From positions 1 to 39,449 of IMG/VR virus record IMGVR_UViG_2671180847_000006: 39,449 bases of DNA; one strand, 5' to 3'. How positions within the stretch are numbered: position 1 is the stretch's first letter; each line of letters starts with the position of its first letter. Made by a program: the position numbers. Positions 30,001-33,000 of this stretch are shown one piece after another. This stretch comes from a virus (taxonomy: Duplodnaviria > Heunggongvirae > Uroviricota > Caudoviricetes).

Positions 30001-33000
30001 TTGTTTTGTGATAAAGCCATTTTTAATGACGGTTGCAATATTAACCTCTTGCTGTGTTCAGGCGAAAATACTAACAAATGAGGAGATTGTTTCACGATTT
30101 ATTAGTAACGTTAAAACATCTGCAGATAATGATGTTGACTTGGATACAGATGGATTCAGACAACTGAGGATATCGTGCCCATCCCCTTCTGCCAGCGGTG
30201 CGATTATATTGAGAAAAGCTTCTTATGAATTCGGCAAAAGTATAGGTGTATTTGATTTTGCAAACAATGCATCACCAGCGACGATGACATTTTTGATCCC
30301 AATACATAAAGATGATGATTTTGATTCAGATACTGTTGGTTTTACATTTGCATTCAAGATGCCAAGAGGCCAGTTTTTTGTAGATGTAAAAGAAAACGGG
30401 AATATCAGAGCTGGAGTTAATGTTAATGGCGAGTCGGGAGTGACCTACGAAAATTGCAAATTGAATATGAAAGATATTAATGATGATTAATATATAAGCC
30501 GCCAGAAATTGGCGGTTTTTTTATAGTGGAGACAGTATGGACTTACCTTCTTTACCTTCTCTTTCTTCACTCCTTTCTTCATCTTCAGGTATCAATTGGC
30601 GCGATAATCTTTACGACGCTTCATTTCGTGGCGTTCCGTTTTCGGTGGAAGGCGATGAGGGTACGTTCGGACGCCGCGTTCAGGTCCATGAATACCCAAA
30701 CCGTGACAAACCGTACACGGAAGATCTCGGGCGTGCCACGCGACGGCTGACGATTAATGCGTATCTCGTTGGTGATGATTACGCAGAGCAGCGCGACAGG
30801 CTGATTACCGCGATTGAAACCGCCGGGCCGGGGACACTGATCCATCCACAGTTCGGTGAAATGCAGGGCTGTATTGACGGACAGGTGACCGTTTCTCACT
30901 CCAGCACGGAAGGCCGTATGTGCCGGGTTTCATTTCAGTTTGTTGAGAGCGGGGAACTGTCATTTCCGGTCGCCGGAGCCGCAACCGCCAGAAAACTGGA
31001 GGAGTCGTCCGGATTCCTGGATGAGCTGATTGAAGACATGTCCGGCGATTTTGATCTCGCGGGAATACCGGACTTTATTCAGAACGATGTTATTGCCCGG
31101 GCAACCGATATGCTGGGAACCGTTCAGACAGCTTTCAAAATGGTTAATTCGGCTGTTTCTGCCGGAGCGAGACTGCTGCAGGGCGATTTATCCGTCATTC
31201 TGATGCCGCCGTCGGTTGCCAGTGATTTTGTGCATATGTTGCAGGATACCTGGCGGGCCGGAACCAGACTGGTGGATAACACACAGGATCTGGTGCAGTC
31301 CATAACAACAATGTCCGGTATTACGCTGGATCCAGGACTGGCACCGCGCGCGGTGTGGCCCACAGATTCCGCATCGGTTGTCAGGCAAAAACAGCAGACA
31401 AATCTGGTGGCTGCAGTCATCCGGACGACGGCAATCAGCGAGGCTGCAAGGGCGGTCACTTCACTGCCGCAACCCGGAAGTCTGGTGAAAAATCAGCAGG
31501 CGGTTGTGGCTGTTGGCGGCTCTGCTGAGCGTCAGTCTGATATTATTCACGTTTCACATCCGGCACTTGACAGTGTGACTGCCAGCACAGAGCAGAATGA
31601 GACAGCACAACCACCCACGCGGGAAAATCTCACCATCATACGCGAATCGCTTAACGCGGCGATTGAACAGGAGCTCAGGCGTACGGCGGATGACAGGCTG
31701 TTTTTTCAGCTGACGTCATTACGTACAGAACTGAACCGGGATATTCAGGCGCGTCTGGTTCAGACGGAGGAAACCGCAGAGCGAACGCCAGCGGAAGTTC
31801 TGCCTGCGCTTGTTCTGGCTGCGTCATGGTACGACGATGCGTCCCGTGAAATTGATATCCTGGATCGAAATGCCATCTCCCATCCGGGCTTTGTTCCGGT
31901 CAGGGCATTAAGGGTACCCGTCAGATGAATAATACCGTTTTACTTCGGGTTTCCGGTCGCGAATGGGGCGGCTGGACATCCGTCCGTATCAGTGCGGGCA
32001 TTAACCGTATTGCCCGGGATTTTAATGTTGCCATTACCACCCGCTGGCCCGGCAGCCGGGATTATCAGCCCCGGATAAAAAATGGTGAGCTGGTTGAAGT
32101 GCTTATCGGTGATGAGCCCGTGCTCACCGGATATGTGGAGGCACTACCGCTTCGTTATGACGCCAGCAGCGTCAGCATGGGAATTGTCGGGCGAAGCAAA
32201 ACAGCCGATCTGGTTGACTGCTCCGCTTTGCCACTCCAGCAGAGCGGAAAAAACCTGCTCAGAATAGTCAGTGAACTGGCTGCGCCATTTGGCATCACCG
32301 TTATTGATGCTGGCGTGCCGCAGACAGCGGTGATTGATGCCCAGCCGGAACACGGCGAAACCGTTGCCGATTGTCTTAACCGGTTACTGGGGCAGGTTCA
32401 GACGCTGGCTTATGACGATGAATGCGGGCGACTGGTTCTGGGAAAACCCGGAACAGGTAAAGCGGCGACGGCGCTGGTTCTGGGAGAGAATATTCTTTCC
32501 TGTGACACGGAAAGAAGCATCAGAGAGCGGTTTTCTGAATATCAGGTCAGTGGGCAGCGACCGGGCAACGACGATGATTTTGGTGAGGCTACCATTGCCG
32601 CAATACGTCAGACCATTCAGGACAGTGGTGTGACCCGTTATCGCCCTTTGTTGATTCAGCAGTCAGGCACAGCAACGACAGCAACCTGTAAGGCCCGTTG
32701 TGAATTTGAAGCGCGTCAACGGGCTGCGCTTACCCGTGAGACAACATATACGGTTCAGGGCTGGCGGCAGGGCAGTGGCGCGTTATGGCGTCCGGGGTTA
32801 TCTGTCATCGTTTTCGACCCGCTGAATAATTTTGATAATGATGAACTGGTGATCGCAGAAGTCACCTATAACCAGGACGACCGGGGCACGACGACTGAAT
32901 TACGGGTTGGCCCGGCAGATGCTTATCTCCCCGAGCCTGTTACCGCCAGGAAGAAAAAAAATGTTGAGGAGGATTTCTGATGAACGGGTTTTCTCTTCGC

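Follow-up and report, generated by a model that had tools for sequence, protein, structure and literature searches.

It has previously been reported that gp15 of phage HK97, a moron adjoining the tape-measure gene, excludes superinfecting phages with a specificity that maps to the tail (Cumby et al. 2012, as relayed in PMC3594210). Here, we describe a moron with a similar location in a 39,449-nucleotide stretch of tailed-phage DNA (Caudoviricetes; IMG/VR record IMGVR_UViG_2671180847_000006, positions 1 to 39,449), the whole of which is called the window below. Its open reading frame (ORF) at 30008-30490 was found between the tail tape-measure gene and a gene for a Mu gp43-like protein. The moron resembled HK97 gp15 as a tail-operon addition beside the tape-measure gene, with deviant GC content, absence from close relatives and a product predicted here to be located in the envelope. 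Unlike gp15, which is a small inner-membrane YebO-like protein encoded upstream of the tape measure in a siphovirus, the moron product was predicted to be a secreted or lipidated barrel of 141 residues; the phage was a myovirus, and the moron was located downstream of its tape-measure gene. The two proteins had no sequence relationship. Judged by analogy of gene position, HK97 gp15 is a closer precedent for the moron than the Cor and Llp proteins.

The Llp protein of T5 and the Cor proteins of phi80 and N15 are outer-membrane lipoproteins that block FhuA and are encoded among tail genes. An earlier reading of the window, made without database searches (the sequence-only reading), had likened the moron to them. 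The analogy stood as a functional one, the moron product being likewise a predicted exported lipoprotein, but it could not be extended further. Namely, no sequence or fold similarity of the moron protein to Cor or Llp was found, the genes of the latter adjoin receptor-binding or tail-fibre genes while the moron adjoins the tape-measure gene, and most members of the moron family were predicted not to be lipoproteins. The Sim protein of phage P1 and the Glo protein of Vibrio phage K139 are reportedly soluble periplasmic proteins with signal peptides, encoded by temperate phages or phage-plasmids, that block infection after adsorption. Both resembled the soluble majority of the moron family and its phage-plasmid clade, but they had no detected homology to the moron and their genes are located outside tail operons. 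The lysozyme inhibitors MliC and PliC shared with the moron product a small eight-stranded barrel, a disulfide between the first and the last strands (a predicted one in the moron), the existence of lipoprotein (MliC) and soluble (PliC) versions, and a superficially similar SASGA motif. Membership of the moron protein in the Cor, Llp, Bor, MliC/PliC or PADLOC families was considered and rejected.

The site of insertion also had a counterpart. Similar to the hotspots of P2 and P4 (Rousset et al. 2022, as cited in PMC10884400), the junction that contained the moron was a fixed intergenic site with alternative, unrelated and AT-rich cargo. Unlike those hotspots, which hold cytoplasmic defence systems, the junction was located inside the tail operon of phages with Mu-like tails, and its cargo families were small exported or membrane proteins. 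In addition, unrelated cargos of the junction had a terminator-ribosome-binding-site module in common, which was another difference from the P2/P4 hotspots.

The moron was a self-contained accessory cassette consisting of a ribosome-binding site (RBS), an ORF and an intrinsic terminator, all on the plus strand. The 160-aa ORF started with GTG and stopped with TAA. The 67-nt upstream spacer (29941-30007) contained a Shine-Dalgarno sequence, GGAG (29996-29999), 8 nt before the start codon. The terminator (30496-30525) began 6 nt past the stop codon and consisted of a stem-loop (30496-30518) with a 9-bp GC-rich stem and a 5-nt loop, followed by a T-tract corresponding to a U7 tail. The free energy of this structure was -14 kcal/mol (z = -3.4), and only 2/200 shuffled sequences folded as well. 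In Rfam we obtained only sub-threshold matches, which were driven by the terminator. Directly after it was the GGAG ribosome-binding site (30528-30531) of the next gene. The cassette was flanked on the left by the gene for the 649-aa tape-measure protein (27991-29940, plus strand), assigned by PHROG matches and RefSeq annotation, and on the right by the gene for a 463-aa Mu gp43/N-like protein (30537-31928, plus strand), also known as the 'DNA circularisation' or baseplate hub protein, which matched phrog_184 and phrog_17109 and corresponded to PF07157 in homologous loci. The GC content was 0.364 in the moron ORF but 0.521 in the tape-measure gene and 0.544 in the gp43-like gene. Moreover, the 500-bp bin at 30001-30500 had the lowest GC content (0.360) among the 78 bins of the window, the second lowest being 0.402. 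Accordingly, the sequence-only reading was right about an AT-rich 160-aa ORF with its own RBS and a strong terminator between the tape-measure and the DNA-circularisation genes. Of the span that it had proposed, 30008-30525, the ORF start was accurate, but the ORF ended at 30490 and the limit of 30525 took in the T-tract of the terminator.

A comparison with the genome of phage phiP27 delimited a wider variable segment (29912-30596, plus strand), inside which identity to phiP27 fell while the flanks were 93-100% identical. Its limits were obtained with a 30-nt sliding identity window against phiP27 and with a pairwise alignment to an E. coli prophage that had an empty slot. In addition to the cassette, the segment included two recombination joints, namely the final 30 nt of the tape-measure gene and the initial 60 nt of the gp43-like gene (the identity drop extended from ~29912 to ~30596). 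The opening ~20 codons of the latter gene (30537-30596; MDLPSLPSLSSLLSSSSGINW) were far more diverged from phiP27 than the rest of the gene, and the closing ~10 codons of the tape-measure gene were likewise diverged beyond the rest of theirs. Thus, an exchange of the cassette also swaps the extreme termini of both tail proteins.

The presence of the moron was optional among very similar tails. Over the tail half of the window, phiP27 was 97.8% identical, yet it had just 15 bp between the tape-measure gene L47 and L48. The gap between the tape-measure and the gp43-like genes was 596 bp in the window versus 15 bp in phiP27 and most P27-like prophages. Among the 52 flank-matching records from complete E. 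coli genomes, 11 contained the insert, and the empty E. coli records among the matches listed aligned in two pieces, with a span of 1,920 bp where the insert would make it 2,501 bp. A set of 29 P27-like viral contigs with a measurable junction included 22 empty sites, 5 intact morons, 1 moron disrupted by the insertion sequence (IS) IS1 and 1 unrelated gene. The same was true for a second tail lineage: vB_EcoM-720R4 had a 50%-identical moron homologue in this slot, and SfIV, whose flanks were 98.3% identical, had a 24-bp gap there. It has been reported that P27 lysogens release complete virions after induction (PMC11364771). Since the gene was absent from phiP27 and SfIV, and P27 lysogens make complete virions, the moron is dispensable for tail assembly.

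In one P27-like prophage (L037, 2831-3557), the moron was broken by IS1, as seen from the InsA and InsB ORFs, and the coding sequence was left from residue ~33 onward, showing that the gene can be lost without loss of the prophage. Among E. coli prophages, the top match (99.8% identity) to a 2.5-kb query consisting of the moron and its flanks was one of E. coli CFIAFB20180511 (L002, 7744-14597). In this prophage, IS421 interrupted the portal gene and an IS66 element the major capsid gene, while the moron was intact; therefore, the moron can persist in a defective prophage. The definition of a moron according to Juhala and Hendrix, as restated in PMC3594210, has four criteria that can be examined in sequence. 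Three of them were observed at this locus: extra DNA between genes that are neighbours in related phages, a deviant composition, and an own terminator; the fourth is a promoter. The identification of the gene as a moron was thus corroborated by its absence from near-identical tail operons, its GC content, its own RBS and terminator and the homologues located outside tail operons.

The moron protein belonged to the family phrog_5586, which is listed as having unknown function. The match was full-length (E = 1.1e-88; residues 1-160 against profile positions 1-161), and the distant members P0010, P0014 and P0021 matched this profile as well. We considered the ORF to be a real gene because of this full-length match, its conserved homologues and a confident fold prediction. 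In near-identical E. coli prophages, the identical ORF was annotated in RefSeq as a hypothetical protein (WP_032083313.1). No match was returned from Pfam, from NCBIfam or from the PDB sequences searched with the family profile, and none of the PADLOC-DB models of anti-phage defence matched at E values up to 10. A word-indexed search of 5.8 billion proteins produced nine clusters of relatives, and an exhaustive search of 1.8 billion representatives with a hidden Markov model (HMM) produced ~16 true relatives. Three long repeat proteins among the HMM matches (P0018, P0020 and P0023) were dismissed since the profile matched each of them in 9-12 short stretches; P0018, when read, was a repeat protein rich in Cys, Ser and Thr. 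Every database name of the phrog_5586 relatives was 'hypothetical protein', and a literature search by accession and PHROG identifier returned nothing on the family. Among 5,426 complete E. coli genomes, 112 encoded a member, of which 11 were from the clade of the window and 101 from the 720R4-type clade. The family was also present in Shigella, Salmonella and Yersinia. A contig scan matched just the E. coli and S. flexneri representatives, being limited by its search pattern. The family is catalogued as a PHROG but uncharacterised, and its member in the window is a tail-operon moron encoding a predicted envelope protein.

All family members with an intact N-terminus had a Sec-type signal peptide. 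Lipoprotein signal peptides have a positively charged n-region, a hydrophobic h-region and a lipobox of the form [LVI][ASTVI][GAS]C, with the cysteine at about residues 15-35. By regular expression and hydropathy, the N-terminus of the moron protein, MIK-PFLMTVAI-LTS-C15, satisfied this classical pattern. By direct reading, alignments, hydropathy and the lipobox pattern, the signal peptide was placed at residues 1-19 (30008-30064, plus strand), with the n-region MIK, the h-region PFLMTVAIL and the lipobox L12-T13-S14-C15 (30041-30052), followed by C16-V-Q-A19 and then K20. The sequence-only reading had called the protein a lipoprotein with the lipobox LTSC. This lipobox was real and conserved in its clade, but the other branches of the family had signal-peptidase-I sites without a cysteine (...LNSFA|KP, ...LALA|KD, ...PVFA|KK and ...PALA|KA), which all ended at one alignment column. 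The moron protein had VQA|K, a site of the A-x-A type, at the same column, and LTSC15 was located four residues earlier. The lipobox cysteine was confined to the E. coli/Shigella clade and the Yersinia copy and was not conserved across the remaining homologues. The Yersinia copy, 75% identical, kept the residues S-C-C and Q-A.

Taken together, the sequences suggest that Sec export to the periplasm is a trait of the whole phrog_5586 family; export of the moron protein itself is presumed from its signal peptide. Lipid anchoring at Cys15 would be a plausible clade-specific acquisition, which we favoured to a modest degree. According to the +2 rule, a residue other than Asp after the lipidated cysteine directs sorting to the outer membrane. 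The moron protein has such a residue and, if lipidated, would be expected there. At the Yersinia enterocolitica locus (L004, 5975-6010), the annotated start of the homologue was MMLISCC, and an upstream ATG AAA AAA CCT, encoding MKKPIYLCL, was 1 nt out of frame. In frame, this segment would complete a canonical lipoprotein signal peptide, whose Cys-Cys would occupy positions 15 and 16 as in the moron protein. A frameshift, decay into a pseudogene, a sequencing error or slippage at the A6 run could account for the offset.

The mature domain (30065-30487, plus strand) was delimited with an AlphaFold2 model and the invariant cysteine columns. A good model was obtained from the mature domain together with 16 diverse sequences, with a predicted local distance difference test score (pLDDT) of 86.9 and a predicted template modelling score of 0.83; a model built on 8 close sequences with the signal peptide retained had a pLDDT of 44.5 and could not be used. 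The predicted structure consisted of an amphipathic N-terminal helix and an eight-stranded antiparallel beta-barrel. A pair of cysteines, C56 and C150 in the moron protein, was conserved throughout the family; in the model, C56 was at the end of strand 1 and C150 in strand 8. Probably, these two residues form a disulfide that closes the barrel. No close structural relative of the barrel was present among the fold matches.

Most members of the family were located in the junction between the tape-measure and the gp43-like genes, a position kept in diverged Mu-like tail modules whose proteins were 46-75% identical. In every lineage the GC content of the moron gene was 0.34-0.42 versus 0.44-0.58 in the flanks. 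The gene was followed by a terminator in all the tail-slot lineages examined but one (L012), and the stem sequences varied by lineage. Divergence was faster in the moron protein than in the structural proteins on either side, and the two were not congruent: the tail of the window was nearest to that of L012, and its moron to that of L003. A distant clade (26-30% identity) was found in phage-plasmids, where the gene was a stand-alone unit with a terminator between the IncFII RepA gene and toxin-antitoxin, ParA and CI-repressor genes. These surroundings are genes expressed in the lysogenic state. In several such loci (L006, 620-740; L007, 2830-2919; L018; L022), a conserved AT-rich near-palindrome (TTATTTAAATAAATATTTAAT) was located before the gene and a terminator after it. 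The phage-plasmids with the moron also had Mu-like gp46/gp47/gp48 baseplate genes directly upstream of repA. Therefore, the family travels with the Mu-like tail type even outside the tail operon. Having homologues outside tail operons and being absent from phiP27 and SfIV, the moron was not a conserved structural tail component, and the sequence-only reading thus withstood the refutation that it had itself proposed.

The moron family was one of many occupants of its junction. Among 76 diverse viral contigs with Mu-like tails, the junction was empty (gap of 0-53 bp) in 48 and filled in 28. The filled junctions contained members of the moron family (10), of a 170-177-aa family (8), of a 174-176-aa family (5) and of a 183-aa family (2); a 121-aa protein, a bPH_2 membrane protein and an IS element were each found once. 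Alternative cargo was present, for example, in L031, L092, L104, L105, L112 and L115. The slot of L031 (1920-2375) was occupied by an unrelated lipoprotein of 151 aa, whose lipobox was LAGC|D. By comparison with BLAST and hhalign, at least seven mutually unrelated cargo families used the junction. Apart from the bPH_2 membrane protein and a HIRAN-domain protein, the alternative cargo proteins had no Pfam, PHROG or NCBIfam assignment. The cargo families began with a signal peptide, a lipobox or a membrane anchor, the HIRAN-domain gene being the exception, and in the secreted cargos the cysteines of the mature part were even in number. All were AT-rich (GC content 0.31-0.42), and nearly all ended in a terminator. 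The HIRAN-domain gene (195 aa, 33% GC) was seen in a metagenomic contig (L013, 2387-2974) between the tape-measure gene and a moron homologue; of all the cargos observed at this site, it alone was not exported.

Unrelated cargos were followed by a near-identical terminator-RBS module, aacccgcttcggcgggtttttttatgcccggag...ATG, located 25-45 nt before the start of the gp43-like gene (L092-L126). Similarly, the terminator of the L031 lipoprotein gene (L031, 2393-2420) was common to the window (30496-30531), with the sequence gccgccagaa(a)t(t)ggcgg. The sharing of this module by unrelated cargos points to an exchange of cassettes by recombination in the conserved flanks, for which the module itself may be the recombination anchor. 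A junction hotspot with a uniform preference for exported cargo is previously undescribed, and it is more interesting than the moron itself. We also considered a broader hypothesis, possible but on the doubtful side, that the junction is a dedicated exchangeable site, where the common terminator-RBS module and the conserved gene ends would allow one unrelated cassette to replace another. At least seven uncharacterised families of periplasmic, lipid-anchored or membrane proteins, the moron barrel among them, would then block envelope penetration or DNA delivery of contractile-tail phages, and each may be matched to the tape-measure and tail-tip proteins encoded beside it.

Judged from its gene content, the window is a prophage of the phiP27 type that converts its host to production of Shiga toxin (Stx) 2e. 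A Q antiterminator was encoded at 11549-12274 (plus strand; PF06323, E = 9e-89), and it was followed by a DNA N6/N4 methylase (12835-13893), tRNA-Met and tRNA-Arg (13934-14187) and, downstream of all these, the stx2e operon. The latter consisted of stxA (14272-15237), encoding the 321-aa Shiga toxin 2e A subunit of the RIP family, and stxB (15250-15513), encoding the 87-aa B subunit that ends in ...GFAQVKFN. The other modules of the prophage were a lysis cassette, an HK97-type head and the Mu-like contractile tail. The early and the Q regions of the window were unlike those of the E. coli prophages that had the same tail.

As for the function of the moron, we tentatively propose a periplasmic superinfection exclusion protein that acts at the step of envelope crossing, a role for which our confidence was somewhat short of even. 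Its Sec signal peptide would direct the protein to the periplasm, where it would fold into a small disulfide-closed eight-stranded beta-barrel; in the clade of the window it would probably be lipidated at Cys15 and anchored in a membrane. In the periplasm of a lysogen or an infected cell, it would hinder envelope crossing by incoming phages with the same Mu-like contractile tail; like that of HK97 gp15 or P1 Sim, the exclusion would act on phages that have already adsorbed. In favour of this role are the signal peptides or membrane anchors of the cargo families at the junction, the association of the moron family with one tail type, and the precedents of HK97 gp15 and of the periplasmic exclusion proteins of P1 and K139. 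From its sequence, we take the moron protein not to be part of the virion.

Such a role would be aided by what the terminator suggests about expression. In lambdoid phages, Q-modified late transcription reads through terminators, and by analogy read-through of the moron terminator is expected. Because the prophage encodes a Q antiterminator, the terminator is useful mainly for Q-independent transcripts; serving transcripts without Q antitermination, it would imply some expression outside the late programme. On this reading, the moron would be expressed from the repressed prophage. Constitutive expression from the prophage has been reported for Tab, a moron of a late operon (PMC10884400). Two observations weigh against the proposed exclusion function. 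Firstly, no sigma-70 promoter was found upstream of the moron in two scans: a promoter tool returned no consensus promoter, although a consensus scan cannot exclude one, and the sole match of a relaxed scan was weak (8/12) and located inside the 3' end of the tape-measure gene. Secondly, in L012 the moron gene was packed into the tail operon without a terminator.

Another, unlikely explanation was that the moron serves the lysogen in host fitness or virulence rather than against phages. In this case, the periplasmic or outer-membrane barrel would shield the envelope from external attack, either by inhibiting, or conferring immunity to, peptidoglycan hydrolases (host lysozyme, effectors of the type VI secretion system or colicins) or through a Bor/Iss-like resistance. 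The likeness to MliC and PliC noted above did not extend to a relationship with this lysozyme inhibitor family (PF09864), which was rejected: the profile-profile probability by hhalign was 0.1%, and the topology of the motif differed. The conserved SxSGAxY and YxxxTKG loops of MliC/PliC were not found in the correct topology in the moron protein, and in the fold search the PliC structures ranked 16-17, in the company of avidins, GID4, designed barrels and other generic barrels. Moreover, the moron family was confined to phages of one tail type, which would be needless for a general host factor, and it was rare in E. coli, as given by the genome counts above (112/5,426).

We gave still less credence to a late function in the lytic cycle. 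According to this explanation, the moron would mask or modify a receptor or the envelope of the dying cell, similar to T5 Llp, and so keep progeny phages from being wasted on cell debris, or, like the RI antiholin of T4, it would act from the periplasm to tune lysis. It was consistent with the location of the moron on the strand of the late operon without a recognised promoter of its own, with the tightly packed and terminator-free copy of L012 and with the Q antiterminator, which ensures transcription of the moron together with the late genes. In addition, T5 Llp is an outer-membrane lipoprotein that acts from the periplasmic side (PMC9586334). However, the terminators conserved after the gene in most lineages would be purposeless for a purely late gene, and the phage-plasmid homologue was located in a maintenance and immunity region rather than in a late operon. 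Besides, the moron protein had no similarity to Llp or to lysis proteins, and its gene was outside the lysis cassette. Finally, a role in the structure or assembly of the Mu-like tail, with loss of the gene in some lineages, as could be suggested by the position kept between the tape-measure and the gp43 genes across tail modules at ~50-75% protein identity, was effectively excluded by the Sec signal peptide of all members, the absence of the gene from phiP27, SfIV and most relatives, the unrelated genes that occupied the slot instead, the aberrant GC content and the homologues outside tail operons.

How phages with contractile tails cross the periplasm, and how resident prophages block this step, is poorly understood. 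To our knowledge, few periplasmic exclusion proteins have been described, and none for tails of the Mu type. If the moron had no anti-phage role, it would be one more uncharacterised moron. As a periplasmic exclusion protein, it is an easily tested candidate: it is small and dispensable, it has an export signal, its fold was predicted with confidence, and the family has forms with and without a lipobox. Moreover, natural near-isogenic phage pairs with and without the moron exist, namely the phiP27-like phages and SfIV versus 720R4. In prophages of E. coli, Shigella and Salmonella that convert their hosts to Stx production or to another serotype, the hotspot could be mined for functions that exclude phages or modify the envelope. 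If the hypothesis of a dedicated exchangeable site were true, the cargos of this junction would represent a new reservoir of superinfection-exclusion mechanisms.

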